A stretch of 63,669 nt of DNA, filler included, from Hausera hauseri (Eukaryota): the NCBI GenBank assembly GCA_046269625.1. It is 13 parts of 13 records of this genome, joined end to end, with 100 filler letters (N's around TTAATTAATTAA, not from the genome) between each part and the next. Parts side by side here need not be neighbours in the genome. Positions count along the whole stretch, not along the records: positions 25,014 to 29,228 come from JBJURY010695882.1; 12 more parts are not named here. One strand, written 5' to 3'. This document shows, in pieces, positions 5,960 through 54,111 of the stretch (positions are counted from its first letter, which is position 1; each line of letters opens with the position of its first letter). The notes under the pieces are model-generated. The model searched no databases, had not been told where the DNA came from, and saw only the letters and a program-made list of their open reading frames with translations. The position numbers and the translations under genes are program-made.

Positions 5960-8900
5960 TTATAATGTCAGTGATGGGGACACAGGAGGCGATACCATTG
6001 AAGGAGATGAAACAGTCGATGTAGACAAAGAAGGCAAAGAAAGTGGTGGAGATAGCAAAAGGGAGGAACAGAAATGTGATTGATGCAATGGCGCAAAGAC
6101 ATTTTGAAAGTTAGAAGGCGTAGGAGTTGATTTTGAATTGGAGGTAGAATTGGCACCCGGAATGTCATCAATGAAGAAAGCGGGCTTCAAGTTCGAAATA
6201 TAAATGTTGTAAGGTTTATCTTGACGTAAGATGACAGCTGTGTGAGATAAAAGATATATTAAGGTCTAAAGCCCGAACGTGATTAATCCTTTAGACACAC
6301 AAACTTGGTTGATTATAAGTCCTTCGGAATGTAGGATTTATTGTTGTAAAAGAGACGACAGAATGAATCTGAGCTGACCTCGACGATTTGAGATTGTGCT
6401 GCACGAATATTTCGTCTGTGGGGTCGTCATCGATATCACAAAGTTCAAATACGGCCCGAATTGGAGTCCCAAAGAGTGCTTCGGCTAGAGCACAACCGGT
6501 AGTGGTAGAGGGTGTGTTGCCCCAACCTAGTAGAAAAAATGGTAGAATGAACATCCAATTAAAATGAGTGTCAGCTAGGATTTTTAAAGAAACTTTCATT
6601 GTTCGATGGAACCTTTCAAGGAGGCCATTTGCTTGAGGATGATATGGAGCTGTATGGAAAAGAGATATCCCCAAGTGTTGCACAAGCGATTTGAAGAGTT
6701 CCGATTCAAATCGTGGACCTTGAACCGTTATTATATAACGTGGGAACCAAATCGACTGATCCAGATTTTTATAAAGGTGTCAGCCACTGAATCAGTGTTC
6801 GTTGAACGAAGAGGAACGGCTTCAGGCCAGCGAGAAACACGACCCGTCATTGTAAGGATATATTGATATCCGTTATCAGAAGGTAAAGGGCCAACGAGAT
6901 TAAGATGAACTGTATAAAAGCGTGATGTACAGAGGAAATGGTAAAGCGGCGGCTTAAGCTGTTTGTTGATTTTGTATTTTTGACAGGCTACGCATTCTTT
7001 AACCCAGCCCTGTACTTCTTTGCGCATTGATGGCGAAACTACATGGCATTGAAGCAGGCGAAAGGTTGCTTTCTAACTTGGATGATGGAGTGAATGCGTA
7101 TGAACGAAAGCTGGCTTTTGTAAAGGTGGTGCTAGAATGATATTTTTATTACCGGTACTCGACGTATTAAAAGCAATGCCATCAATGATCTCGAAGGATT
7201 TGAAGGAGCTAAGGAAGTCAGCAGAGGAAGATTTGCCCTTAAAACTTCGGATGAGAAAATCGGCTCAACTGTAATGGAGCCAACCGACCTCGATAGAAAA
7301 TATGCTATCAAATTATCTGTGCCTGAGATGTATTTCAAAACAAAACTGAATGTAGACACGTATGATGTATGTCGCTCTTGCCTCGGCGATGGTTGTTTTA
7401 ACGACATGATGTGCAGGAGCGGCTTGTGGTTAGTTTGAATAACAAATGGATGAGAAAGAAGTAGGTGTTTGAAATGTTTTACTGCCAGAACTATGGCGAG
7501 TAACTCACGGTCAAATGTAGAGTAACGGCTTTCGGGTTGTGCAAGTTTTCGGGAGTAAAATTTTAATGGTTCATCAACCCCGTTGGAAATCTGGTGTAGT
7601 GCTGCACCGGTAGCAGTGGCTGAGGCATCGGTCGTAAGTATAAGATCTGCCTTTGGCTTCGGATAGACTAGTGTTTCTACGGTTTTTAGGCCTTCACGTA
7701 AGTGATTAAAGTTGGTGACTAAATCAGGAGTCCAGTGGATTAATTGCTTCCTTTTCCCCGAAGATAGATGTGAAGATAGATAGCTCAGAACAATGAGGTA
7801 CGTATTTGTGAATGAAGTGGAGTATGCCTAAGAAGCTGCTCATATCCGTAGTAGTCGTTGGTAGCGTTATGTTTTTCAATTGTTGTAGTCGATTCGGTTG
7901 TGGAGAGTGGCCGTGAGGAGTGATTACGTGGCCTAGGAAATTAACACGTTTTTGAAAGAAATGACACTTAGAGAAGTTGACTTACAAATTGCTGTGATGT
8001 AGTCTGTGAAAGATAATACGAAGGTGTTCTTGATGTTGTTTAACAGATGTAGAGGCATATAATATGTCATCAATGTATAGATGAGCAAAGTCAAGGCCTG
8101 AGAGAACGGTATCAATGTTTCGTTGAAAAGTTTGGGAAGCACTACATGAACCAAATTGCATAAAGACATATTCATAGAGGCCAAATGGAGTAATAGCAGC
8201 AGTTTTTGGAATATCATCAGGTGCAACCGGAATATGATGATACGTTTTATGCAAGTCAATTGTGGAGTACATGTTAGTATTGGTAAGACTGTGCAGGATG
8301 TCCTTTATGAGAGGTAAAGGGTAAGTATCCAGGGCTATTAGGTTGTTTAACTGCATATAGTCACCACATGGTCTGTAAGTGCCATCCTTCTTTGTCACTA
8401 CATGCAAAGGTGAAGCCCATGGTGATTTGGATCTTCGAATAATGCCAGCCTTTTTGAGTTCATTGAATTCTGATTCAACGGCTTTTCGCCTACGAGGTGA
8501 CAGTGGTCTGACCTTTTGTCTGATAGGTCTTTGTTGTTCGGTGATTATGTGGTGATACGTTGTAGAATGCGGCTTGAAATTTACGTCCTTCTTGAAAGTG
8601 CGGAAACAGTAAGTTTTGATGTAGGATTTAAGATTGGATTCCAACGATAAGAATGATGAGGGCATATTATTGGAAGAGTCATTGGCTGTAATTGATGTAA
8701 AATGACTGAACACTTCATTAACGACATTCGGTTCAACCGACTGTTTCAAGATTGATTAGTTCCCACTTGACGAATTTGAAAATATGGATGAATTATTAAG
8801 CGTATTGTTATCAGCCGATGAACAGCGTGTCAATTTGACATTTGAATGAATTGAGGAGGACAAAAAGGTGTACGACTGGTCGTCTGGTAAACATTTATTG

Positions 8901-15520: not shown

Positions 15521-16157
15521 ATGCAACACACAGAGTCGGGCGAAAAGTAATGAGCCTTCATTGATTGTAACAAAATAGTGTCTTTTCGTTTTTGTATCTC
15601 TTCGGCCGGTGGTTTATTTTCTGTTATAATGGTTTTCGGCTTAAATCCGCTCTTCCGAATTCCATATACATCTCCTAGCGTAGTTTCATCGTCCCACCAC
15701 TGAGTTTGTGTTTTCGGGATATAAGAAGCAATTAACGACAGTGTTAAAACTATGTGAACGTATGAGATCGGTCTGGCAATTATTGAAGAAGTTTTTATCT
15801 CACGTTGTCGTAAATTGTAATGTTTGTTGGGTCGTATATCTGTTTTAACGACTCTCTGTACTGATATGACCTCTTCCTTTCCATTCTTGTTGATATACGC
15901 CGTAGTTGGCATAACTTTAGTAACTTCGTACGGTCCTCTGCATGTACGAGTCAGTTTTAACGACATAACTTTTTAGCTCCTGGGTAATGTACATAAACCC
16001 TATTTACTTGTTCTAAATCGTGTGACTTTGTTTTTTTATCATATTACTTTTTAAACTGTTCTTGATATTCTTGCGATAATTCTTTGTCAATTTCCCAACA
16101 TTTTCATAGTCGCGTCGTAGCACTTCTGCAAAATTCTGATCTAAATATTCGGGGTTA
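15517..16157 (-). pseudogene. Gypsy integrase C-terminus (GPY motif) running into a signal-peptide-like segment; complex Gypsy copy A
   Basis: RGPYEVTKV..ISVQRVVKT followed by ISYVHIVLTLSLIASYIPKTQTQW. Clearly homologous at DNA level to 33830-34436. Confidence 0.85.
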
Positions 16158-25013: not shown

Positions 25014-25763
25014 ATTCGATAAAATGCTTCGTAGAGATGGTTTGTGTTTAGCAACAATGGACCGTCCGCCACCGGTTTGACCGAATTCTCGTTTATTAAA
25101 ACCCAGATTTCTTGACAATAGTTCATCAAAGGCAAAACATGTAACATTATCGTGTAGTGTAAACGAAATACGACCATCAGAATTTAATTAAAATATCTTG
25201 AGAGCCAGTTTAGTTACTGCTTTGATGGTTACACACAATTCTGCTTCCGTTTCCGTAAGAAAACCCATTCCTGTTGTATGAGAGTAAAAGAGTGATTCAG
25301 TCTTTTGCCAATTCACTGTAATATCGGTGGTTTTCGCAGTGGAAAAGTTCAATTTTTCACTAATTATACTCTGCCCACCGAGCTGTCGGATAGTGATTTA
25401 AATTGTAATTCAATCGGATGTTTGTGTTTTAGCACCAATCGATTGTTTAAATGAAAAATATAAACCGGGAAATATTGTCGTTTGTAATTGCGAACGTAAA
25501 ATGTTCCATTAGTCTCGAACTAACTGCAAACGACTAGATGCAGGAGATTGTCTTACTAGGGTATAGTATATTCCACTGTTCTCATGTACTGTTATTGGTG
25601 AAAATGTAAACGTGAATTCCGCCAAAGCCACTTCCCAGGCTCCCTGGCGTAAGTCGAACGGCTGGTCCAACGCCATGGTAAACCGTTCAGCGGTATTGTT
25701 ATTGTTGTTGTTGTCATGTTCTGATAATCTGTTACTATCAAGTATCAAATATGTGCTAATCAC
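25014..25763 (-). pseudogene. Polinton/adintovirus minor capsid (penton-like) protein, partial
   Basis: YLILDSN..NTAERFTMALDQPFDLRQGAWEVALAEFTF is the typical N-terminal pattern of Polinton minor capsid proteins. Confidence 0.7.
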
Positions 25764-26810
25764 TCAATCTGTGATGCAAAAATCCAACTCGGTGTAGTGT
25801 ATCCGTGCCACTTGACGAGATATTGTTTATTCGAACCTTTGCCGCGTGAACGTAGAATTCCCTGAATACGATACACATCAGGTTTTTCCGGTAGTACTTG
25901 CAGTTCCTGTTCGTAAAATTTGCCACGTATTTCGTCACCATTTTCATTTTCTAAAACGTACATAACCGGACTTTGCTTTGTGTTGATTGTTAAAATTCGG
26001 AAAACCTCATCGTTCCAGTTTTGATTGAAATTCTTAGTGAATGGCGTCGTACTGAGCTTGGAAATACGTACATAATCACCGATTTTATATTTTTGGTGAC
26101 GCTTAATCGCCTGTCGTCTTCGTTGTGTTGTTCGGTTGTTTTGATAAAGCCACATGTTTAAATCATCGATTACGTCAACCGGCTGTAATCCATTGATAAC
26201 ACGGCGTGTCGAATGATTGTATGAATTAATAATATCCGGTAGTACATCTATTCAGCGTTTGTTGCCTTGCTTCGTAAAGAATTTGGTTAGGCGACCGCAC
26301 AATGTTCGATTAAATCATTCAACGAGTGCAGCCTGGTATTGGGAAAACACCGAGTAGTGGTTTACGCCGAACTGTTTCAAGACTGTTGCAATGTGGGCGT
26401 TGTAAAATTCCTTACCCAAATCCGTTTGTAAGTTCTTCGGTTGTTGTTGTTGTTGCATCAGCGTCTGAACAGCGTCGGCAATCTCTTTACAAGATTTAGA
26501 TTTCACGGCAATTGCACGTGCAAAACGACTAAACACAACAAAACATGTGAGCACGTACCGATACCCATCATTGATGTTAGCGTACGGAATCATTTCCATC
26601 AGATCCATTTGCAATACATTATTTACACCGGCAGCACGATATGCACGAGTTGGAAACCGCCTTCTTATCGGTTTGTTTAGTCTGTATGCTAACTGTTTCC
26701 CGAACCAATGTTGGGTCTGTTACCGAGTCTGTTTGACGGTCTTTGCCAGTTTGTCGACGCCAGTATAGCCGACGGGATGACGCGGGTCGAGCCACACATC
26801 GCCCATCGTT
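25760..26810 (-). pseudogene. Polinton retroviral-like (rve) integrase with C-terminal chromodomain
   Basis: DPRHPVGYTGVDKL, QMDLMEM..YRYVLTC..FSRFA, LQTDLGKEFYN, YKIGDYVRISK..FTKNFNQNWNDEVF and QYLVKWHGY. Confidence 0.92.
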
Positions 26811-26962
26811 GTAGTCGTCGATTGTGTCGGTTTTGCTGATGCTTGCATTACAACAATGAGAACGAAACGTAAATGAAATATTCGGTAAACTGGGACAAAA
26901 AGATGAAAACCATGCACCCATATCGCCGAATCATCACATACTTACCGTCATTGTTTATACTA

Positions 26963-27346
26963 TCATGTTGTTGCAGAACCAATGAGTCCACCCACTAATG
27001 ACGCGACAATCGGTAGAATTGTGCCAAGGAATCTACCGTCTTGCTGGTACATAACCTCTCGTTTCAGTCGTTTACTGCGGGTGTTGGCAAGGCCAATGAG
27101 TGGTTTTCGATACTTTAGTAAATTCCGCTTTCCACTACCAATGTCAATGTGACCCACGACAATATTGTATAAAATTTCCATCAAATCGTCTATTACAAAC
27201 TGTGGGAATGATCGCAGCATGTGTCGCTTATGTCTCGTAGGTGCCTTGAGCAAACCAATAAAGTACGGTTGACTACGTTTGAATCGCATGCTTTTTTGTG
27301 GACGTATTGATGTTGATGAGATGTATTTATTTATAACCGTTGCCAC
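26963..27346 (-). CDS. Polinton/adintovirus small conserved protein with amphipathic C-terminus (pX-like)
   Basis: EILYNIVVGHI..QQDGRFLGTILPIVASLVGGLIG is a variant of the GGFL..L..L pattern usually found next to the Polinton ATPase. Confidence 0.65.
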   Translation of the reverse strand: MATVINKYISSTSIRPQKSMRFKRSQPYFIGLLKAPTRHKRHMLRSFPQFVIDDLMEILYNIVVGHIDIGSGKRNLLKYRKPLIGLANTRSKRLKREVMYQQDGRFLGTILPIVASLVGGLIGSATT

Positions 27347-27507: not shown

Positions 27508-27544
27508 TTTTTATCATAATCATGTAGTCGATTTTCGAATTTGT

Positions 27545-28170
27545 TTATATAACACATACACCACCTTTCTGATTGAAAATATCTGTGCGTATACGCATGT
27601 CATCGGGATACTGTTGTGTAAAGTCAATGAGCAAGTATCCGTGTGGTTCGGTCGTAGCATCATGATATGCATCTATCAAGTAGGCCTGATTGTGAAGAAA
27701 TGCTTGTCGTGCAACATAATCAATGATAGTTTGATCACGGCGATTTCTGAACAACACCAAATAGTGTACGTTTAGATTTCTTGTTCGATGCTGCCCACCC
27801 TGATGGAATATTTTTTGCGTAATGAAAATAACCGTTACGCCACGGTGTCGTGCAATCTTCGTGAACAGGTTGTTGAAATCCTATTGTTTCGAGGCTTCTT
27901 GAAATAAATCGTCAATGACAATAACGTCACCGCTGCGTAATCGTTCAGACCAGTTCTTATCAGACCCATCAATTACCGTTATCGATTTTAGTTTACAAAA
28001 TTCCCCATGTGTCAAACCGGACTCACCATCATCGCAAACACCCTGATGCTAGTAAATGTGATTGTACCGCGGTAAATGGAACATGTCACGGTAGTTCTTC
28101 AATAGTTTACACACAAAGTGTGTTTTGCCAGTTTCACTGGGGCCTACAATCTGGAAAATAGCATCATTCT
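27545..28170 (-). pseudogene. A32/FtsK-like DNA packaging ATPase of a Polinton
   Basis: Walker A in IVGPSETGKTHFV, Walker B in VIVIDDL, plus VLFRNRRD..DAYHDATTEPHGYLLIDF. Frameshifted. Confidence 0.92.
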
Positions 28171-28276
28171 GCAGCTTTATCAAATAATAATACAACCTTT
28201 CCTCATCACATGATTTGTTTATAATCATTTTACACTCGCGCATATAAATAGTTATAGTATAAACACTGTTTCCATA

Positions 28277-29080
28277 ATGACAGCTAATATCAATTATCTC
28301 GGACATGTTGCTAGGTGGTGTGAAATTAACACCGTACCTTTTATTCCGTGGAAGCCGCCGGATTTTACATGTATCCTATTTCAATCGGGAAAGTGTCGTA
28401 TTATGGGCTGTTGCAAACTAATCACATCTGACAACAGTAAACTGCTGCCATTCGGAATTGTCATTGACAAAATCCAATCAATAACGGTAAAGACTCAGTT
28501 AGACTACCACCAAACAATTAATCTGTACAAATTATCAATGGCCGCTGCTACTGAATGTACGTATGAAGCCGAATTGTTTCCTGCACTGAGATTGACATCG
28601 TTTTGCCCACTTTGTGTCAATGCGTTTAGCAGTGGAAAAACTGTTGTACTCGGTATATGGATAGTGGACTATGAACCGATTATTAATCAAATTAAAAATC
28701 ACATAAATACTTTACTGAATCAAAATAATGTACATGGCACAACAACAACAAACTGTAAATACCATTCCCATGCCCATTCAGACATTACTGCCATGGAAGA
28801 TGACGCCAAAACAATTCTACTCAATGATGACAATGATGCCAATGATGATGATGATGAAAGTTCAGATTGGTCGTGGTTGTTTGGCTACAACAAAAAGGAC
28901 GATTCTAATGTCAAACTGCTAGAACCACTTGTCCAACAATTAGAAAAGCAAGGTGATTGTCTGCAGGCCGATTGTCTGGAAACAAAGCAGGAACTTGCTC
29001 GGAAAGCAGCAGCAAAACCGACGTTAAAAAGGCAAAATGCAATGATTGGTGGACTACGTAAACGAAAATCAAAATCGTAA
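28277..29080 (+). CDS. Divergent TATA-binding-protein-like protein with an acidic/basic C-terminal extension
   Basis: Two TBP-like repeats: TCILFQSGKCRIMG, and IQSITV..INLYKL..YEAELFPALRL..VNAFSSGKTVVLG. Compare canonical LIFSSGKMVCTG and YEPELFPGL..IFVSGKVVLTG. Confidence 0.8.
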   Translation: MTANINYLGHVARWCEINTVPFIPWKPPDFTCILFQSGKCRIMGCCKLITSDNSKLLPFGIVIDKIQSITVKTQLDYHQTINLYKLSMAAATECTYEAELFPALRLTSFCPLCVNAFSSGKTVVLGIWIVDYEPIINQIKNHINTLLNQNNVHGTTTTNCKYHSHAHSDITAMEDDAKTILLNDDNDANDDDDESSDWSWLFGYNKKDDSNVKLLEPLVQQLEKQGDCLQADCLETKQELARKAAAKPTLKRQNAMIGGLRKRKSKS

Positions 29081-29328: not shown

Positions 29329-30262
29329 CCCCAATAATTCCCATGAGAGATGGAATTTTCGGTCGAGTTACGGGAGAGGTATTATTAACTTATGAATGCG
29401 AAAAGAGAGATGTACCCATCAGCGTTGAAGAAAAACGTTGCATTCAGGAACTTCCCGTTATTTACCAAACTACTCCAAGGTTAGCTACACCACTGACAAG
29501 AGTGTTATTGGATAACGCTACCCAACCAACCATCCTTAAAAATTGTAAAGCAAGCTTAGGAGAATTCATGTTTAGACATAGCGAGACGGACTGGGTCAGC
29601 TTACCAAATGGGAGTATTATTGCTGCTCCAAGTAAATTGACAGGAACAAATCTCGCGAAAGGAAATACCGACGATAAATTTCAAGACACCTTATCGAAAG
29701 GCATATACGACAACGAACACACGAGCTAAATCGAGCCATAGCATCAGTAGTAGATGATACACGATACCAGGCTAAATGGGAATCTTTACTTGGCGTAAAT
29801 CATTATCAGCGAGTAACCACAGAAATACTCTACAAAATTTGGGGAAAATTCTTAATTTTTGAACAAGCCGCATCCGGATTTTTAGCGATATATTTTTTGA
29901 TACCAGCTGTAATTAATGGGTATGAGATATTTACGTTGACTGGATTTTCTTGCAAAATACTGACTGCGATCGTAACACCCTTTGAAAGATTCTTAAAGGC
30001 ATACAAAGAAAACAGATGGAAATCGGACGTAGAACGTCATGTCGGATATTACAATCGTAAAGGAAGAAGAAGACCTATATTTCTGCGGAAGCGGAAATTT
30101 ACAAAACATAATACGCGAAGAAATGATTCAGACGATGACGAGCCAAAGGGAGGAGAAGTATTTTCGGGAATAAATAAATATAAAGCCTATTCGGTTATTA
30201 AAGCGCCACTACCTATGTTGCCTCCTACTGCTACAACTTATGAGGACTGCGACAAACGATAG
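29329..30262 (+). pseudogene. Class III (chuvirus/Jingchuvirales G-like) fusion glycoprotein, C-terminal part; env-like
   Basis: GIFGRVTGEVLLTYEC..RCIQELPVIY..LATPLTRVL..C..F..W, then a TM segment and the INGYEIFTLTGFSCKILTAI block that resembles chuvirus G tails. One frameshift. Confidence 0.75.
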
Positions 30263-30532: not shown

Positions 30533-33500
30533 ATGGAAAACAATGAATTATATCCAAATGAAGAATTGAGACATTTATCGGAGAACATGGTATTCTCCCC
30601 AGAGATCCGAATAAATGGACATAAAATATCGGCAGTAGAACGTTCGAAAGATACATTGAAATGCTTGGGTACAGTAATAGAAGGAAGGCCTTTCGCCAAA
30701 ATCATTATTAAAGATTGGGAAGTCTACGCATTAATCGATACAGGATCCGAGATGTCTTACATAAAAAACGATTCAATTCCTAAAACGCTGAGAGGACAAT
30801 TGTACCCACCGTCCACAAAAGATCCACGAAGTACAGGAGCTTTTGGCCAAATGTCTAAACCTATGTTTAAATGGAATCCAGAAGTTCAAATAGTTGGATA
30901 ATTTTTCCACCACGAATTTGCAGTTATGGAACCATTAACCGATGACATAATTTTAGGATGTGATCTACTGAAAAGACTACCGAATATAGCAGTTGACTTG
31001 CAAACAGGGAAATTGATAGAAATCAGAACAAATAAAGGCGTGAAAAATGCTAAAGATAGAAAATTTGGAGAGGTCTGGATACCAGTAGATGAAGATATTC
31101 CACCAAGAACAGAGTTAATAATTTACGCACAAATTCAGCAAGATGACGATCAACCAGTATACTTTGAACCAAGAGAGACATTAAATCCAAATATAATACT
31201 TAGTAACATACTGACAAGAGTACATTCCGGTCGTGTGCCAATAAGAATAGCTTACAATGCACCAATCCCCATTAAACTCTATGCTTATACTACTCTAGGA
31301 GATACGTATACAGTGTCATCAATAACTATTCAAGAGAAACCTTACAAGTATGCCGAAGTTCCACCTCATGTCGAAACTAAGTTTTCTCCCGAATCTTATT
31401 GTCGATTTTATGAATTATTATTTTACTAAAAATCGATCATCGTTAAAGACGACGAAGATATCGGTAGGACAAAAACATTAAAGCTAACTATTCCTCTAAA
31501 TAAAAAGCCAGGTTCGAATGAAGAAATAGACATTGAGGATCAAAAGACGCCGAAATGGTATCCTCCACCACATTCGTTAAGACCTGAGATAACAAAGGAA
31601 GTCGAACGAATACTTAAAGCCGATATAATCAGGCCCAGTTACAGATCTTGGTATTCATCAATCCTCGTGGTTAAAAAGAAAGGTACCACAAAACATCGAT
31701 TTTGTTTTGACTACAGAGCTTTAAACAATCTTATGATGAAAGACTCTTTCCCATTGCCATCAGTAAAAGAAGCTTTAGATAGACTCTCAGGCGCAAAATG
31801 GTTTATTACTCTGGACTTACAATCCGGATATTGGCAAGTGGAAATTGAAGATGAAGACCGATATAAGACAGCATTTAAGACGCACGATGGTGTATATGAA
31901 TTTAACGTCATGCCGTTCGGTATTACTACCAGGCCAGCTATATTTAAAGGATGATGAATAAGATGTTAATGGGACTGGATCAAGCTTTTGCGTACTTAGA
32001 CGACGTAATTATAGCATCAAAAACGGAAGAAAAACACCTAAAGCACATTGAACACACTAATGCGTCTGGAGCAAGCCGGATTGAAATTAAACCCAAAGAA
32101 ATGCAAGTGGGCACAATTGGTAGTATACTACCTTGGCCATATAGTTGGAGAAGGAGGATCGAAACCGGATAAATCATTATTAAGTAAAATATCAGATTGC
32201 ATGGACCCGCAAAACCAAAAAGAATTAAGGCACTGGCTAGTATTATGCGGTTATTATGCAAACTATGGGTCAGATAATTCAAAGATAAACACACCCCTAT
32301 ATTGTTTACTTAAAAAAGGAATAAAATAGAAATGGACGGACGTCGAACAAAAAGCTTTTGGTGAGATGAAGAAGATATTAACAAGCGAACCCGTTTTACG
32401 ATATCCAGATTTTAGCTTACCTTTCATAATCAAGACAGACGCCAGTAAGGAAGGCATCGGATAAGAATTAGCGCAGAAGAGAGATGATGAAGAATTAGAA
32501 CGCCCGATTGCTTATGGAGGACGATCCTTGAAGAAGGCCGAGAGAAACTACTCTGTCACCGAGTTGGAAACTCTAGCCGCAAAAGAAGCACTTCGCCACA
32601 TCAACGTTTATGTATACGGGCAGAAAATTATAATCGTTACCGATCACAAGGCCGTTACGACTTTGAAAGGCCGGGCAAATAATCCGACATGCAGACTTAA
32701 CAGACGGATTGAAGAAATATCAAGATACAATACCAAATTTCAATATAAGCCAGGGAATAAACATGTAGACGCGGACGTATTATCGAGATAAAAGACCAAA
32801 ACCAGCGCAATCACTGTAATGCAAAAGAGTCAACTTGAAGAAATAATAGACCGACAACGCGCTTTAACAATGGATAAGGTCATAAAAATTTCAAGGGAAC
32901 AAAGAAAGGATAAGGTCATTCAGCAGATTATAGAATTTGCTAAGAAGGATGTCATACTGAAAGGACGACAGCTTAAGAAGCATTTACGCAGACACGGACA
33001 TAAATACTGCATCTTAAACGACAAGAATAATGAGAATATTTTATATTACGAAAGGAAAGGAAGAAAATTGATAGTTATTCCAAAAGGGTTATGAACCGAA
33101 GTATTGATGTCAGAATACAATTCATATTTAGCCGGATATATGTCCTGGAAGAAAACGTTATAGAAAATAATGAGCAAATATTTTTGGCCTAATATGTATA
33201 TTGACGTGAAGAATTAAGTACATGCATGAGAAGTATGTGCAACTAAACTAAAGAAGACGAAAAATTACATAACTGAATTAAAACCAATTGATGAAGCCGA
33301 TAGGCCCATGCAAGCCATGTCGATGGATATTGTAGGACCTCTCCTTACAAACCGTAAAAATAACAAGTATATCTTGACGTGTATCGATCGACTAACTCAT
33401 TTTGTCGAATTTATAGCATTAATCGATCAAAGGGCTGAAACCTTAGCAGAAGCCGTAGTAAGAAGACTTATTTACCGATACGGACCCCCAGTTAAGGTGC

Positions 33501-34140
33501 TTACAGATCGAGGAAGAAATTTCAGCAGTAAACTTTTTGTGAAGATTTCCAAAATACTTGAAATCGAAAGGTTGACGACTACTGCTTATCATCCTTAATG
33601 CAATGGAATGGTCGAGCAAATGAACGCTACCGTCAAACGTGTATTATCTACGGTAGTAGCCAAAGATCAGAAAGATTGGGATGAGTTTTTAGAAGGAATA
33701 CAATTTGCAATTAATACTACACCACACCCGGCGACAGGATTCACACCAATTTTATGATGTGTGGACGTAAAGCCGTATTACCCACAGATTTAGGAATGAC
33801 ACCATATACGGTCAATCTTGAGGACTTAGAACAAAATTTTGCAGAAGTGTTACAGACACGATTACGAAAATGTTGGGAGATCTCTAAGGAGTTATCTCAA
33901 GAATATCAAGAGCAGTTTAAAAGATAACATGACAAGAATGCAAAACCGCACGATTTAGAACAAGGAAATTGGGTTTATGTACATTATCCAGTAGCTAAAA
34001 AAGGTACCTCATTAAAATTAATTCGTACCGGCAGAGAACCGTACGAAGTCACCAGGGTTACGCCAACTACAGTGTATATCAACAAAAATGAAAAGAAAGA
34101 AGTGGTATCAATACAAAGAGTTGTAAAGACGGAGATACGG
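30533..34140 (+). mobile_element. Ty3/Gypsy pol (PR-RT-RNaseH-IN), decayed; complex Gypsy copy C
   Basis: ALIDTGSEMSYI; RFCFDYRALN; LDLQSGYWQV..KTAF..VMPFG; YLDD; TDASKEGIG..NYSVTELE..VTDHKA; SMDIVGPL..LTDRGRNF..TTAYHP. Confidence 0.96.
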
Positions 34141-34436
34141 CCCAATAATTTACGCCAACGTGAAGTAAAGACTTCTTCAATAATTGCTAGACTAATATCG
34201 TACGTTCAGAGAGTTTTGGAATTATCGCTAATTGCTTTTTGCATTTTAAGAACACAAGCGGAATGGAAGCATAAAGAACCTGTCGTAAAAGATAATTACA
34301 GAATTAAGAAAAATGAGGCGAGGTGGGAGACTCTTAAAACGGGGAAGACACTGACAGTGGAAGAAAAGCAAAGATAAGAAGATGTCAGATTATTATAGTC
34401 AATAATAATAAACTATTATTCGCCCAACTCCACATG
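34140..34436 (+). CDS. In-frame post-integrase signal-peptide-like segment and start of the membrane protein
   Basis: LRQREVKTSSIIARLISYVQRVLELSLIAFCILRTQAEW matches copy A. Confidence 0.7.
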
Positions 34437-38828: not shown

Positions 38829-39110
38829 TAGGGACAGGTACTTCTTCATCGTTGTTGGAATTATGGATAGTTCCCAGTGTGGAAATTCGTTTATGGCCAA
38901 TTTCAGGATATGGTGACAGTCATAACCTTGAAAGTTATAAAATATCACCAGTAGGAATGGCCGAACACGCCTTGCAAAATTGCATGCATTACGTGCTGAT
39001 CCCAGGTATCGTCCGGTAAAGTAGTCGTGATCACGTACAAGCCGTTCCTGTAGATCTAACCGCAATATTTTGTGGCACAGGCAACATTCGTCAGTGTGGT
39101 GACCACAACG
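38829..39110 (-). pseudogene. pPolB fragment (endonuclease VII-like region and start of exonuclease)
   Basis: CCLCHK..VRDHDYFTGRYLGSARNACN..IFYNFQGYDCHHIL. Confidence 0.85.
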
Positions 39111-41699
39111 GCTGGTGCCCTCTGGCCCATTTGGTTGGGCACGGTTTGGCCTCCGATATCGTCGCGTTGGATCCATAGTCGGACCTAATTTTTGCCTCAA
39201 AATTCACAATTTTCCTATGCTGACATCTACACTTTCCCGAAATGCCGAGATTGATTTGTATTTTTACAAACACCAACTTTGATTTTGCTACCCAAACAAA
39301 CAGCAAATGTACAATGTTAAAACTACAAAACTGATTTCCCGTGGAATGATTATTTCTTTACGTTCGAGTGTTAAAGAAATATTAGACGATAACAATCAAA
39401 TGACCAAATAGGCACTAGATAAGATGCTCCAAGAACTATCACATGGTCAATCAAACCAATTTTGGCAACTCTCGAATCAGACAGCCTATGTTAAAAATCA
39501 TCTCTTGTCCATGGGAAAATCGATTTAACACGACCAAAAAAAGATGTTACCACTTTCAAGTCTAGAGTACTACAAATCTCCTATTTGCGAAATTTTCGAA
39601 TCTTAAAAATTGCGCGAAATTCGTTCACTGATCGTTACATCCAATCATCTTAATATCCCTGTAATTAAGTTGCCTCCAACGGCCCGATTAGATAAGCTTT
39701 TGAACGATACACTAGAATTTCTATTTCGATCATCTCTAAAAAATAGGAAAGTTTTGTATTATATTGCATACGAGCATTGAAGTACTCTCTATCGTTGAGT
39801 GATGCTTAATTATTCACTTTTCTAAATAATTAATGCGAATAGGCATTATATCAGCAACACATTGTCGCATAAATAAAGGACATCTTTTGAATCATCAACG
39901 GAAGATATTTCAAGGAAAGCTAAACTGATATTAAAAATAACGGAGCATCTTAAGTCTGACCAATCGAGATTGAATTAAGAACAATTTCACTTATGATCAA
40001 TTGTTATATGTTGTAATAAACAAAAAAAACGTTTGCTATTTCGAGAATGACAGTATTTATCAAACTAGTTCAATCCACTTCCAAATGTGGTACAATGCTC
40101 AGACCAAATAGACTAACATTAATTTAAATATAGTTTACCGTGCATGTATGCGACCGAATCAACAACGCACTTAATCAATTGTCCACTTCAAAATTTGTAT
40201 GTGATTACAAACAGACAGACACAGCTCTTCATTCTGATAGGCCGTTCTATAATATGCAGTACAACCAATTCTTATTAACAAATTGACAATGAAAAAAATC
40301 CTTTTGAAAATGGTAAATCGCTTACTACGAAGTAAACAAGCATTCGTCATTCTAAAGATCGTTTGCTTTTCTGTATTATCAGTGCCAATTCCACCAAGGA
40401 ACATATCATTCGAATATCGTCAAATTCGATATACAATCGAGCAATAAAAATTCAGTAACGACAACAACAGCAAGTACAATTCAAAGTTCATACTCATCGG
40501 TGTTTGTTAATGTCAATTATTTGCTTATGATTTGGATTTCAAGTTACCTTTTATGCTAATTACTACTGTTATTTACTCTACTTAACATTCTTATACTGTA
40601 TTCCGTTGACAACGAATGGTTTGATTGGATTATTGAATATGCATGTCTTCATATGTATATAGATTTTTGTTAGTTGATTTAAAGAGAATTAAGTTGTTTT
40701 AATAATAGTTTTTTCAACTTTTTCAATTTTGAAATTACTCTCGCCATTTTAAGTTATTATTTACTTACAAATATTCTATTGAATTTGTAATATTTTGGTT
40801 ATTGCGTGAAATCTCGTAAAGTTACCAGGTCCTGTTTTCTTGGACATATTATTAGATTTTAAGATTTTTGCGGATTTTATTTATGAACTCAGATAACGTA
40901 TCGGTTTTAAATTTGGAAAATTGCCAATCGCTAAATGAATTACTGCAAAAGTTATTCAAAAGATCCGTATTTCTTTGCAAACCGTCGTCATCACCGGCTC
41001 CGTATGTTAAATATTACAACTGTTCAAATGCGTCGAAATTTGTGGAGATATTAATCGTTCAGTCGGACGGCAACATTTTGATCGATTGTGGAACGAATTT
41101 TGTTCATGGGCGAATTTTAAAAAATCGTGTACCGGTTTATGTGCAGGGATTGTGCAACGGATGAGGCGCGCGTTTTGTGCCGGAATTGTTTTATAAATAG
41201 TCAACATACTAAACATGACTATCAGATGAATATATCAGGCGGCGGCGGTTGTTGAAACTGCGGTGACACCGAAGCATGGAAATCCCAACCGAGCTGTACG
41301 TTACATGGCGGTGTGGATAGTCAATCAGAACGCAGGGAATCAATTAAAGATAACGATAAATATCTGACACAGACATCGGAAAACGTCAGAAAACGGTTCA
41401 TTGAATTGGCGATAGTTATCATTGATGATGATCGACGATTTGTTATGACTCCGTTGTGCGAAGGCATCGAAGACGTCTGGGATGAAGCGCTGAAAAAAGT
41501 AATGGACATTCACCAAACGGAATTCCCGACGATGAAAACTCAAAAGCTGACATTTGCCTTGTACAACAATGAATATCATGATTTCGATCGGGTCACCATT
41601 CTGTTCAAACTCCATCTGCAGTGTTCCTCGCAGGGTCTACGTTTTGAAAGCATAACAGAAAACAATAGTCAGTAGCAGCGAAAAGCAGCGATTCATTTT

Positions 41700-42923
41700 T
41701 GTCTGTCCAGCCCAATGGCTTCGTGCTGTTTTTCAGATACCACGGTGCAATTTCCGTTTGAACTATTGTCTCCAACTGATACAGGAAATCGCGAACACAG
41801 TTCTATCTGTGGAAAACATAGTATTTTGGTTGTCCGTTGACTTTAATTGGCACAACCAGCATGCCGACGGCGATTGGGACGTGCTTTTGGTTGTAGATAT
41901 TGTGCCGTGGTAAAATTGCCTCGATATCGGCATATACCATATATGCCGTACTGTCGATTTTGGACCAGTCACTGAATCTCAGTTTCTTTTTGACTGGCAT
42001 GACACATCGTTGTTCCTGTTGCATTTTTCCTGCACAGCGCCACATGCTTTTCCCATATTGCTTCTAACCTAAAGTCATGTAGACATATGGGACACAATTT
42101 GCAGCGTATGCGCTTTTTGGACAAACTGGTCATAATCCATGTTTAGTAGTCTATCCAAATTTGTTACTGCCAAATAATGAAAGTTTTTTGCATTCTCCAA
42201 CAGCAGCAAATTTACTGGGCATCCATTTGGGTTCCGACTGTGGTAGATTATGTGTACATAGGGATTTTTGTATATTTCTTCATCTGCCGGTATCTATATG
42301 ATTGTGTTGTACCGGGACATGTTTATTGACAATGTTGGATTGCAACGTTTAAATGCCGGAATGGTTTTGAGTTTCTTCGGCATCCAGCTTTCGTCGTAGA
42401 CCAATTAGGCGAAATAACTACTGTACTGCTTTGGAAAATTTGTACGATGTCTGGACACTCGATCATATTTTAATACGATTAGAATACTGTAAAGAAAATA
42501 GTATTCATCATCCGTATTTTGCACACTCACAACCACCAGAGACTGCTTCAAGGCTGTAGGTGTCGGCGTGAATGACCGTCCGGACAGGTATATCATGTCA
42601 CTTGACTTTATAATAAAGCTGAGAGTGACAATCTTTACAAATCGCCATCTGCTGACTTTTTCCGTATAGATAATGATTTTCTCATGAAGATTTTCGCCAA
42701 TGTCCTCAACAAAATCTTCGGTATATGGTACAAATCGATGTGACAGGTACCACTGTTTCCTGTGACCTTGCACGTTTTCGAATTCTTCAAGTGCATAATA
42801 CTGCACATTGCAGTGTTTGAGTTTCCGTACTTCAACTTCCATTCGGTTTCGCACACTGGAAGGGGCATGTCTCAATTGCATTGTTGTTGTCGTTGCCGCT
42901 GACATGTCCACCTTCATGTCCAC
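41700..42923 (-). pseudogene. pPolB N-terminal region of a second Polinton lineage
   Basis: SGRSFTPTPT..VSVQNTDDEYYFLYSIL, LLLL..HYLAV, CPICLHDF, YMVYADIEAIL..HVPIAVG. It continues at 39110 after an interruption. Confidence 0.8.
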
Positions 42924-43111
42924 GTACGATCTGTTAAATCGTACTTGACGGTTTTAATTGCATCTGTAATAAATCCATATAATCCAGTAATAGATTCAAT
43001 TCACAAGAAAAAAATCCAGATTATAAGACGCTTTTATTATAAGACGTTGCTGAATAAATAAGCTGCTGAATTAATTCAGAATTCAATTACCAATAACCAA
43101 AAATCAATTAT

Positions 43112-44668
43112 TTATACAATCAAATATATAGAATTATTCTTTGGGTGGGCCAATGTTGGCACTACAAAGGTAATGGGTAGTTCCTGTTGGTCCTGTTGCT
43201 GCTGCTTACTACTACTGCTTTGCGCGTATTTGTCAAGGCTTGTGGATGCTTGACGTTTCCAACTGGTTGTTGTTGTTCTTGTTGTTGAGGGGATGCTTCT
43301 TTTTGTTGAGTCCATGACTAGTTGCTTTTGGGACCGCTTAAACTGGTTTAAGTGGTCCCGTTTACCGTGCTGCGTTGTGCCATAGTACTGCTCCATTGCA
43401 GTATGGCAACCATCAACGTTATGCGCTCTACTAGTAAACTAACGTGGGTATGTGTGGCAATGCGCAAGCATCTTCTTCTTGGACCGCGTAAACGGACTGA
43501 GATGATGCTTGTGCATCTCGTAAAAGTCGGCGTACGGGCACTGGGTTGACGTATTGCACGTGGGACATAGATATGTGTCCGTCCGCACAACGTAATACTT
43601 CGCCACCTGCTGATGGCACTGTTCCTCGTCCACGTGTATGCGTGATACGCAATACACGGAATAACAATTGCAGTTCTGAATGAGAAACAAATTAAAGTAA
43701 GTGTAAAATGCAATATACGTTAAATCATTTAAATTAAAACAAATCGCTACTTCTAAAGCAATGATGGTTTTGGTTTAAGGGCGACTATAAATATTGTTCA
43801 CTCAATGTCACCACAAGTAAACAGATGGAAGAGTACATAGAAAGCGAAATTCAGAGATTGACAGATGCATTTTGACCGGACATGTGTTTGACGTACAGTA
43901 CCTATATGAGCTATCAGAAACAAGAATAATGAGCAGACGAGAGTACATTGAATTAATAGTCCGGTCTCTTTTCGTGAAACGCATAGAAGATGAGGTGAAC
44001 CAAAAGCAACGACGGATTAAAATTTTTATCGGACTCGTATTTTCCGTTTCATTTTGTATTGCAATGAAAAAGTTGATTGAACTTATTTAACTGCATTTGT
44101 ATTATAATATATAATTTTCTATGTATTTGTTTTTATACGTTAATGTATTGTATTTCATGTTCTGGCTACATAGCAGTAGTATAAATGTTTACTATGTTAC
44201 CTGTGGGATTATAAAATGTCCAATTTGACGCAACTCATTGCTCTGTATCACTCATTCGACGGTCTATTGAGTCACTTTTACAATCTTGATCGAACTTTAG
44301 ATAATGACGCTGGGCGTTCGTCTCCCGAAAAGATGGTCCTGCGTGAAGAGGAGAATTGGAAGACACGGGACCCCTATGTACGCCACATTAAACATATTGT
44401 TGGTGATATGAATGTGTTATTCGGTGCGCTTTTTCATGCGTATCAAAAATTAGCGGATGGCTAAGCGTTGTGCGATAATAAGCGTCAAATACGGTTTCTG
44501 AATGGTTTTACGAAACGTGATGATCCGGTTGAATTTGTTCCAACGTGGCAGTCAGAGAATCAGATTTGCTTGAGGCAACATTGCAATGTGATTACTTCCG
44601 ATGGTTTTGATCACTCTCCTACCGTATTGGTTAATCCCTGTGGATTATGTAATTCGATTAAATTTTAA
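43112..44668. other. Cluster of short Polinton-like accessory ORFs with TATA boxes
   Basis: A Cys/His-rich minus ORF at 43439-43690 and plus ORFs at 43872, 44216 and 44468. TATAAA motifs at about 43786 and 44179 precede ATGs. Adjacent to pPolB. Confidence 0.4.
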
Positions 44669-50657: not shown

Positions 50658-53600
50658 ATGGACACAAATTCAACAGGATCATTTATTATATCTGCCCAGG
50701 ATGTGAGGCTATGTGATGGAGAATACATACAGTTTTATGATGATCACAAACATCATTTGACTGACTTCGCATCAAAGTCAAAGATCATATTTAATGAACA
50801 TAAGCCAGTTGCACAACCTGCAGTACCACGGCTTGTAGTACCACGGCCTGCAGTACTGCAGCCTGCAGTACAGCCAGATGCAGGACTAAAACGCGCATTA
50901 GGCGTATCAAGAGTAGCGGCTCCAACAAAAAGTCAAAGACCGGCCAGTTGATGTAGTTGCACTGAAGAGCGAAGTGCGGCGATACTTCATAGCAGCAGTG
51001 GGACAGACTTCGCTCCATGAATTCCTGGAATATTCAGAGGAGGAGGCAGCAGGAATTTTTCATGGTAACTTGTTGGAGCTGAAGGCCCTTAAGGTGAACT
51101 TCAAATTTGAAGCCACCTTCACCAATGTCAAAGGAGAGCTGTCTAAAAGAGCCTTCAAGACAAAGAACAGGCCACTATTAAAATCCTTTAACATTAAGGA
51201 TTTCATAACAGAGGACTATGCAAGGTTCATCCGTGAAGCCAAAGAAAGCCAGGACAAGAAGGGTGGTTGGACTTTGGCAACAATAAAGGGGTTACTTGTG
51301 CATGTGCACAAGTATTGTCCCATGAGAGGCAGGTCCTACATACCGCTTCTTGAATAGATAGTTAAGAAAAAGGCATGTGTTAATGTGCATAATAATGACA
51401 ACATATGTTTTATGTATGCCATTTGATCAAAACTAGTCCAAGATGAACATAATGCTTCCCGAGTTTGGATATATGACAAAGTGCAGCACACATACGACTT
51501 CAGTTGTATTTCATTCCCTCCGAGCCTAGATGAAGTCGTGAAATTTGAAAGCGTGAACAACATCTCAATCAACATCTTCGGATTGGAGGAGGACAAATTT
51601 TGTCCATTACATGTGTGCAAGGAGGAATTGGAGGATCATAGGGATCTACTCCTGCTAGATGACGGAGAAACGAGGCATTTCATCTGGATCAAGAATTTTG
51701 AGTGCCTCGTAGGATCCCAAATATCCAAGCATAAATCAAGGCTGGAAATATGCTAGAGATGCTGTACCCATTTTAATGGGGAGACAGCCGCAGAAAAGCT
51801 GGTGGAGCACAAGACCTACTGTAATACAAACTACTGCATCCGAGCAGAATTCCCCAAGGAGAATTACCTGGAATTCAAGGAGTTTGAGAAGATGCAGAAG
51901 GTACCGATTGTCGTCTATTGTGATTTTGAGGCCATCCTCAGCCCAGTTCACAGCTGCAGCCCTAATTCCCAACATAGCAGCACAACACCATGCTAATATC
52001 ATGAACTCTCATCATATTGTATATATGCCAGAGGACTGAACAGTGAACCATTTCTATTCAGAGGACCAGACGCAGCAGCACATTTTATGAAGAGATTAGA
52101 AAACATAGCTCATAGGCTTGAAAACATGCTTCAGCAGAATAGGGATACAATGAGCATGTCGAAGCAGCAAGAACATGAATGGCGCAAGGCAACAACATGT
52201 TACTTGTTTGACAAGTCCTTCACCAAGGATAACTATAAAGTCAGGGATCATTGCCATTTTACAGGCAAATATCGAAGTGCAGCATGCAACAACTGCAACT
52301 TACGCTGCAAACATGCACATATGTGCCTGTAGTGTTTCACAATCTCAGTGGCTATGATTACCACTTCATTGTTCGGGAACTGGGTAATATTGAGGGGAAC
52401 AATGATGTCATTTCAAACAGTGAGGAAAAATATATCACCTTCACTAAGCATGTGGGCCACATTAGACTTCGATTTATAGACAGCTTCCGCTTCACGAGTT
52501 TGTCACTGGATAGTTTAGTAAAGAACCTGCATGCATAAGAACTCAAGGAGACGAAGCGGTTCTTCCCCATTGCATTTGACCTTGTCAAGAGGAAAGGCGT
52601 GTTCCCCTATGACTATGTAACGTCATGGGAAACACTGGATGAAGAAGCATTACCATACAAGAAGGAATTTTATAGTCAGTTGTCATCCAGTCATATTAGC
52701 GATGCTGACTATGTGCATGCCCAAAGAGTATGGCAAACCTTCAAGTGCAAGCAATAGGGGAATACAGTGATATCTATCTCCTCACAGATGTACTGCTGAT
52801 TACAGATGTCTTCGAAAGCTTCCGGGATGTCACAATGAAGAGCCATGCTTTGGATCCAGCCCATTTCTTTACAGTTCCAGGAGTGAGCTGGGCGGCGATG
52901 CTGCGCTATACCGGCATAAGGCTCCAGGTATTGAAGGATTACAATATGGTCCTCATGATTGAGAGAGGCATCAGGGGTGGAAAATGCCAGGCCATTCACA
53001 GGTACAGTAAGGTCAACAACAAATAAATGACAGATTATGATCCATCAAAAGAATTCTCATATATATCATATCTGGATGCCAACAATTTGTATGGATGGGC
53101 AATGAGCAACCCATTGAACTATGATAACTTCAAATGGGTCGAGAATCCTGAAGACATCTCAATATTGGGCTTAGATCCCACTGGAGATACGGGCTATATG
53201 CTGGAGGTGGATGTTGAATACCCACATAGCATCCACACAAGGCATGAGCAGCTGCTATTTCTGCCGGAGAGCAAGATGCCATTAAATGGTAAGCATAAGA
53301 AGCTGCTCTGCCATCTCGAAAACAAGAAAAGGTATGTACTCCAGTACATCAGTCTTTAACAGGCCATCCAAAATGGGCTCAGAGCCATCAGGATTCATCG
53401 GTTCCTGCAGTTCATCCAGTCCAAATGGCTGAATCCATTCATAGACCTCAATACTCAGTTGAGGGCCAATGCCAAGAACGAGTTTGAAAAGGATCAATTC
53501 AAACCTTACAACAACTCGGTCTTTGGAAAAATTATGGAAAACATCCGGAACCGGATAAACATTGATTTGGAATGTGACTGGAAGAGGGCAAAGAAACTCA

Positions 53601-54111
53601 TCGCAAAGCCCAACTTCCACAACAGCACAATCTACACAGAGAACCAGGTGAACATCCATATGCTCAAGACATCGCTTGAGTTCAACATGCCTATATATGT
53701 GGGCATGTCAATATTGGATCTATCCAAGACCTTGATGTATGACTTTCATTACAACATCATGGTCCCCGCATTCAAGGAGCTCCACCTAATGTACATGGAC
53801 ACGGACAGTTTTATATACCAGATCCGCACAGATGATGTCTTTGAAAAGTATGCAAAATTGGAGCAGTATATGGATACACCAGACTATCCGAAGGATCATC
53901 CAAATTATTCAATTACCAATAAGAAGGTCCTCTGGAAGTTTAAAGATGAGGTGAATGGGAAGATCATTACCCGTTTCGTGGCACTGAGATCAAAAATGTA
54001 CGCCATCGATGTAAGTGGTCAGGCAAAGAAGCGGGCCAATGGAGTTCAAAGGGCCACATTAGCTAAAGACATTGGCTTTGGAGATTTTGAAAGTGTTGCG
54101 GGAGCAAAGTT
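50658..54111 (+). pseudogene. Nearly full-length protein-primed DNA polymerase B (Polinton/adintovirus) with several stops and frameshifts
   Basis: RGRSYIPL, VYCDFEAIL, RDHCHFTGKYRSAACNNCNL, FHNLSGYD, FIDSFRF, RKGVFPY, YLDANNLYGWAMS, NSVFGK and YMDTDSFIY. Confidence 0.96.

Follow-up and report, generated by a model that had tools for sequence, protein, structure and literature searches.

Why would a Polinton carry a gene for a TATA-binding protein (TBP), and what would that protein do there? The question arises from a 63,669-nucleotide stretch of Hausera hauseri DNA (GenBank assembly GCA_046269625.1; hereafter the window), which is made of 13 short contigs joined by N spacers. On the contig at 25014–29228, the initial annotation had described a two-repeat TBP-like open reading frame (ORF) transcribed divergently from a block of packaging ATPase, integrase and minor capsid genes.

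A decayed TBP gene among broken Polinton genes

The ORF (28277–29080, plus strand) is intronless and reads through 267 amino acids with no interruption. Its residues 65–126 exceeded the curated cut-off for the Pfam TBP family (E = 2.4e-8). Identity of the protein to cellular TBP is 20–26%. An AlphaFold model was confident over residues ~1–150 and of low confidence over the remaining ~115. Compared with the PDB using Foldseek, the model matched TBP chains throughout the matches listed (best E = 2.3e-7; 44 matches counted at E ≤ 0.001). The TBP fold was thus borne out, but the two-repeat description holds only in part: only residues ~1–150 are TBP, and the first repeat is partial in this subfamily, to which this copy adds a 7-residue in-frame gap after residue 27 relative to its nearest relatives. 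The tail of ~110–115 amino acids is absent from close relatives; we found no homologue of 28733–29080 (the Atlas gave no usable match), and the tail may represent a gene of its own downstream, beginning with the ATG at 28796. The coding features of the contig are:

28277..28732, plus strand: TBP-like domain, amino acids 1–152, short subfamily of Polinton TBPs (Pfam, AlphaFold/Foldseek, alignment)
28733..29080, plus strand: acidic/basic low-complexity tail, read in frame, with the internal ATG at 28796
27530..28189, minus strand: A32/FtsK-like packaging ATPase in three pieces (profile E = 1.7e-51, 7.7e-11 and 8e-10)
26963..27289, minus strand: conserved ~110-amino-acid gene of cluster c4, which in relatives sits between the ATPase and the integrase
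26619..26921, minus strand: small ORF with an MG start and a CC motif, whose span overlaps the 5′ end of the integrase
25757..26854, minus strand: rve integrase with a C-terminal chromodomain, broken
25014..25763, minus strand: putative minor capsid (penton) remnant, labelled from position and size

The ATPase, integrase-chromodomain and putative minor capsid pieces all lie on the minus strand, head-to-head with the TBP ORF. The putative penton remnant had a profile match over 25512–25763 only (E = 5e-13) and no Pfam match; likewise, clusters c5 and c7, the putative capsid genes of related loci, were named by size and position and had no Pfam match. Both the rve integrase and the FtsK/A32 packaging ATPase, hallmarks of Polintons and adintoviruses, are thus on the contig in broken form. 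Protein-primed polymerase B (PolB) and the adenain protease are absent from these 4.2 kb, which include no element end; among TBP-bearing relatives, PolB occurs in locus L058 and protease in L033, and PolB pieces sit on other contigs of the window.

Stops and frameshifts disrupt the genes neighbouring the TBP, and in a quick tree the terminal branch of the window copy measured 0.29, compared with 0.04–0.06 in its nearest relatives. On the strength of this branch, the in-frame gap and the disrupted neighbouring genes, we judged the copy to be decayed, and it is probably no longer functional, a state that the initial annotation had overlooked. Its conserved-column departures (1 in 31 columns) equal the family median and are not unusually degenerate. 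Contigs from four runs in four studies matched nearly the whole stretch at 85–99% identity (38,574 records in X1), some of them carrying extra bases at the site of the TBP gap. Given these multiple copies, the gap, the tail and the branch, the window TBP is one decayed member of a multi-copy family.

Polintons encode a conserved TBP family

Using residues 1–150 as query, we recovered 90 relatives at 35–66% identity among 109 candidates; the best two were 65–66% identical to the window TBP and 149–160 amino acids long. A profile search gave 547 matches among 2580 candidates, of which the best 120 were listed and the remainder may include cellular TBPs. In a metagenome scan, 105 of 389 pattern matches were confirmed and 80 loci kept. 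The family is typically ~150–170 amino acids long (median 156 among 180 non-redundant relatives). A hallmark gene (ATPase, integrase, putative penton or hexon, protease, PolB or PLA2) was present in 41/80 TBP loci, and in 26/32 of those of at least 3 kb. These results confirm that the Polinton-encoded TBP is a real conserved family and not a quirk of the window copy.

The linkage of TBP to Polintons is conserved; the head-to-head layout is not. A survey of Polinton synteny, as the initial annotation had proposed, showed TBP recurring in Polinton loci, but the ATPase was co-oriented with TBP in 25/28 related loci, so that the divergent arrangement seen correctly in the window is an exception. 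Several conserved genes (c2, c3, c16–c18) flank TBP, none of them common to all TBP loci. TBP-bearing elements also encode ubiquitin-conjugating, RING, KilA-N and LRR genes (L016:225–719, L068:13315–13893, L058:7016–7873 and L031:1918–3327).

The TBP family is under purifying selection as estimated from coding sequences: median dN/dS was 0.165 (~0.17) over 46 pairs from 63 genes, filtered for at least 62% identity and a measurable dS >0.1, compared with 0.08 for the ATPase. TBP and ATPase distances were correlated across 20 loci (Mantel rho 0.61; 0/2000 permutations as high). In the quick tree (78 rows, composed without TRF2, archaeal or nucleocytovirus TBPs), 11 cellular TBP cores were split off by a branch of 2.5 changes per column (SH-aLRT 100).

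Searches elsewhere were largely negative. The IMG/VR pattern scan for the family gave 0/49 stretches and IMG/VR held no close hexon relative, while an ATPase scan there returned 4 distant loci among the matches listed. No ATPase relative was found in prokaryote genomes, and Pfam found no TFIIB among the 56 element ORFs scanned. There was no sign of a family member fused within a protein of 469–2000 amino acids: the 22 matches were mostly named cellular TBPs, a weak indication.

The family keeps the TBP saddle and alters its DNA face

The family comprises a long subfamily (165–190 amino acids), which keeps both repeat-1 helices, and a short subfamily including the window copy, in which helix H2 and most of H1 have gone. 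For one long-subfamily relative, the model (pLDDT 93.6) aligned with human TBP (1cdw) over 166 residues at Z 16.9 and 3.0 rmsd. As modelled, the family has the TBP saddle fold of two pseudo-symmetric repeats, the first being partial in the short subfamily.

We counted residues in yeast-equivalent numbering across 180 non-redundant relatives. The register N4 = N69 and N6 = V71 was set by hhalign on the long subfamily; MAFFT placed strand S1 four residues off. Kept across the family are F116, F190, F207, P191, N69, E186 and E188. The initial annotation had called for a check of the intercalating phenylalanines: three of the four that kink DNA are kept (F35, F101 and F117 of the window copy correspond to F116, F190 and F207), but F99 is lost, its column being proline in 99% of 135 sequences. 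The stirrup glutamates occur together with F190/P191 in 167/180 relatives, and the window copy has them as E97/E99.

The DNA face carries near-invariant polar residues. V71→N was found in 170/180 relatives, F116 with V122→R and T124→M in 172/180, I194→R in 162/180, and V203→C/S with L205→N and F207 in 177/180; each of V71→N, V122→R, T124→M, N159→S, V161→T/S, I194→R, V203→C/S and L205→N reached at least 162/180. [quoted passage not shown] All three positions are changed in the Polinton TBP, to residues other than those of TBPm3.

The N-lobe is also trimmed: the N69–F116 spacing is mostly 34–45 residues (47 in cellular TBP) and the G125–Q158 spacing mostly 17–23 (32 in cellular TBP). According to PMC7221094, this lobe of TBP binds TFIIA, TAF1, Mot1, NC2 and Brf, and E284/E286 of human TBP contact TFIIB. 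The basic N-lobe surface for TFIIA/TAF1/Mot1/Brf1 is missing from the family: short-subfamily members have no H2, and the H2 of long-subfamily members is not basic. Read from residue identities, the pattern suggests that the protein has acquired a different sequence specificity and shed host regulation while keeping its contact with TFIIB.

A YATAAAC box marks one of two putative promoter classes

We counted motifs within 80 nt upstream of ATG-started ORFs of at least 90 amino acids in the TBP-bearing loci, after removing near-duplicates (TBP 71 to 54, ATPase 26 to 23); a few of the TBP starts so counted are internal ATGs. YATAAAC, a motif discovered and counted on the same, mutually related loci, lay upstream of 22/23 ATPase genes, compared with 0 on the reverse strand and 0.8 in shuffles. 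Across gene clusters the counts were:

Frequent: c4 11/14; c3 10/16; putative hexon 8/10; putative penton 7/12; PLA2 7/8; protease 4/5; LRR 5/5
Rare: TBP 0/54; integrase 4/12; c2 2/17; ZnF 0/8; c19 1/5; c27 0/3; c28 0/3

The 80 loci contain 273 YATAAAC sites, 136 of them at most 80 nt above an ORF start, as against 10/148 for YATAAAG, and the distance from box to ATG peaks at 25–34 nt. Upstream of the TBP gene, canonical TATA was present in 26/54 cases (9.3 in shuffles) and an Inr-like motif in 28/54 (3.4 in shuffles), mostly 30–32 nt apart; c16, c11 and c18 tend, like TBP, toward canonical TATA with an Inr-like motif, and the spacing was 30–32 nt in 19/28 pairs. The seventh position of the box was C in 61/95 regions of the YATAAAC (late) class and 4/69 of the TATA (early) class, the classes having been defined on the same data; the box itself lies 20–50 nt above 4/69 early-class genes.

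Nine Polinton loci from IMG/VR gave no TBP hit; their ATPases had the box in 0/9 cases and canonical TATA in most. This control amounts to a single contrast because the nine are partial contigs of one lineage with a distant virion module, their ATPases being 62–89% identical to each other and 20–25% to those of TBP-bearing loci; TBP and box are thus confounded with virion-module ancestry.

In the window, the initial annotation had correctly pointed to TATA motifs in the intergenic region (TATAAATA at 28243–28250 and TATAAACA at 28258–28265), but had overlooked the minus-strand box at 28216–28223. The promoter elements are:

28243..28278, plus strand: TATAAATA and, ~31 nt downstream, the Inr-like TCCATAAT, together a putative early-class core promoter for TBP
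28258..28265, plus strand: TATAAACA box within the promoter of TBP, 12 nt upstream of its start codon
28216..28223, minus strand: YATAAAC late-class box ~27 nt above the start of ATPase homology
27542..27549, minus strand: YATAAAC box in the ATPase 3′ end, 35 nt above a 22-amino-acid basic ORF and upstream of the c4 region
26952..26959, minus strand: YATAAAC box 31 nt above the MG...CC ORF

The window as a whole has 12 YATAAACR sites, below the 16.2 expected by chance, and 4 of the 12 fall on the 4.2-kb contig. The box within the TBP promoter was seen in 0/54 relatives; it is either a possible autoregulatory site or a chance occurrence.

Three further observations concern the box. It often overlaps the final codons of the gene that precedes it, a placement that may account for the YKQ with which the ATPase recurrently ends (ATPase C-termini in L002–L080; 27542–27549, minus strand, in the window). 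Boxes starting with C were found in 15/33 long-subfamily and 6/44 short-subfamily loci, a difference confounded with ancestry and GC content. MG...CC ORFs with YATAAAC 25–31 nt upstream occurred in eight related loci (L002, L014, L016, L018, L020, L024, L026 and L048), in a search conditioned on the presence of the box, and lie just above or overlap the integrase 5′ end. We take the MG start and CC motif to be a possible myristoyl/palmitoyl signal.

A predicted early-to-late switch

We consider it likely that the protein is an early, element-encoded TBP that binds YATAAAC and recruits host TFIIB and Pol II to late genes in a two-step cascade, with binding being a prediction. The TBP gene would be expressed early by host TFIID from its host-type TATA and Inr promoter. 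Its product would then bind the YATAAAC boxes, acting as promoters before most genes of the packaging and capsid modules, and its rewired N-lobe would recognise the C of the box. Once on the box, it would contact host TFIIB and, with Pol II, turn the late genes on, and its trimmed N-lobe surface may let it escape control by TFIIA, TAF1, Mot1 and NC2. The original suggestion of a TBP that redirects Pol II to element promoters gains support from a promoter class that appears to match the protein.

Taken further, a broad and old Polinton lineage would run an autonomous early-to-late cascade through one ~150-amino-acid TBP, rewired at the TBPm3 positions, that reads YATAAAC, binds host TFIIB and ignores TFIID and Mot1. 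The cascade would then have reinvented the TATT switch of herpesviruses independently, and would point to a helper-independent virion programme. We put this larger claim only slightly above even.

Alternative explanations

We take the AdMLP C(−25) variant to be TATAAAC. Wild-type TBP has been crystallised on that variant, going by the title of PDB entry 1qn3, and host TBP can accordingly bind it; host TFIID might read YATAAAC as a weak TATA variant, leaving the element TBP to serve as a decoy or repressor, either by sequestering TFIIB or by blocking promoters of the host or of the early class. Kept TFIIB glutamates on a trimmed N-lobe are also expected of a dominant-negative protein, and a box does lie inside the window TBP promoter. 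A TFIIB sponge, however, needs no near-invariant new residues on its DNA face, and it would leave unexplained both the C at position 7, so unevenly divided between late-class and early-class regions, and the canonical TATA at the ATPase of the TBP-less control; we regard a decoy, the other suggestion of the initial annotation, as unlikely. The confounding with virion-module ancestry favours a second alternative, in which the box is a real late promoter but a helper virus or a different element protein confers its specificity; the TBP would then be one non-selective part of a larger complex, possibly one that bypasses TFIIB. The conserved genes flanking TBP could supply such partners, and ORF24 of the herpesvirus associated with Kaposi's sarcoma (KSHV) requires partners and is predicted not to bind TFIIB, as set out in PMC12529657. 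Yet no single flanking gene is common to all TBP loci, and the family retains its stirrup glutamates, which ORF24 lacks and for which PMC7221094 gives ~40% conservation among other viral TBPs; an accessory role of this kind seems to us improbable.

The remaining two explanations deny the TBP any part in the box, or the element any claim to the TBP. TATAAA and CATAAA are known poly(A) variants, which favours reading YATAAA(C) as a variant poly(A) signal, or as a bias of coding sequence, where the preceding gene ends; so does the finding that 62/273 sites begin at most 20 nt before a same-strand stop codon. This reading fails because the box occurs at only 1/41 co-oriented gene ends directly above the TBP gene. 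The window box, moreover, precedes the ATPase at a point where no co-oriented gene ends, and the spacing to the next ATG has its peak at 25–34 nt; we hold it very unlikely. That a host TBP retrocopy came to adjoin one element by chance would suit an intronless ORF in a decayed copy. It is refuted by the 90 relatives, far closer to the window TBP than cellular TBPs are, by the recurrence of the gene in Polinton loci under purifying selection and diverging along with the ATPase, and by thousands of similar contigs from four runs and four studies, and we give it almost no credence. The early TBP acting on YATAAAC at late genes is the reading that we carry forward.

Relation to cellular and viral TBPs

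The Polinton TBP shares with cellular TBP/TBPL2 (PF00352) the saddle fold, F116/F190/F207, P191, N69 and E186/E188, and differs in its low identity and trimmed N-lobe. Its closest functional parallel is probably the herpesvirus TATT-binding proteins, represented by Epstein–Barr virus (EBV) BcRF1, KSHV ORF24 and cytomegalovirus (HCMV) UL87 (PMC4893493 and PMC12529657), which are also virus-encoded TBP folds. Both have a polar DNA face, with V122, V161 and L205 changed in ORF24 as well (Table 1 of PMC12529657), and both pair a one-base TATA variant before late structural genes with host Pol II, a use that is predicted on the Polinton side. The box is YATAAAC in Polintons and TATT in herpesviruses, and EBV BcRF1 bound TATA and TATT alike in vitro (PMC4893493), which counts against our reading of the Polinton TBP. 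Unlike the herpesvirus proteins as described in these sources, in which the TBP domain lies within a ~750-amino-acid multidomain protein, the Polinton TBP stands alone at 150–170 amino acids and is still recognisable by sequence. It lacks F99 and keeps the TFIIB glutamates that ORF24 lacks, and it has no Pol II-binding N-terminal domain and no known six-protein complex, while the herpesvirus protein needs five partners. The Polinton TBP is therefore not a member of the herpesvirus class, but likely similar to it in mode of action.

Nucleocytovirus and mirusvirus TBPs (BFVD matches; PMC7221094) are likewise viral TBPs with an eroded N-lobe regulatory surface. According to PMC7221094, most of those have a viral TFIIB as partner, and the first of their stirrup glutamates is conserved in only ~40%, whereas the Polinton TBPs keep both glutamates almost throughout and the scanned element ORFs gave no TFIIB.

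In gene content, TBP-bearing elements resemble Polintons, Mavericks and adintoviruses, with an integrase, a packaging ATPase and a putative capsid module. A 'TBP' gene is labelled in at least one MELD virus or related element, going by the legend to Fig. 5 of Starrett et al. 2021 (PMC8502044), whose text, in the passages covered, offers no family, residue or promoter analysis; one supplement has no TBP/TATA text. Beyond that label, we found no description of the Polinton TBP family or its box among the literature matches listed, a survey of text rather than of figures and most supplements; a term search of the texts of PMC11131425, 10.64898/2026.10.13.758929 and 10.1101/2025.02.07.637071 gave no mention of TBP or TATA.

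Particles of vertebrate Mavericks had not been observed at the time of PMC8097293. A dedicated TBP with a cognate box offers a concrete, testable model of how Polintons and Mavericks express their capsid genes and whether they need a helper virus, and the box provides a sequence rule that sorts many uncharacterised genes into early and late classes. If the model is true, TBP expression would mark entry into the productive phase, and the protein would be a natural minimal altered-specificity TBP useful for studying core-promoter recognition.

Other features of the window

Fragments of PolB, reverse transcriptase and Tc3 transposase on the other contigs indicate a eukaryotic host, probably an animal. 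Among them, decayed pieces of PolB and integrase lie at 452–1931, 6294–7072, 33230–33754, 38829–39251, 41608–42953 and 51079–54049, and 43821–44087 is homologous to c18, one of the genes flanking TBP. At 29343–29729 and 30533–30901, a fragment of a Monjiviricetes-type fusion glycoprotein is found near one of a retroviral-type protease, and the two probably derive from an env-bearing LTR element. Finally, 15653–16116 and 33855–34310, on two contigs, have ~460 bp in common in inverted orientation at 70–82% identity and are probably copies of one repeat.
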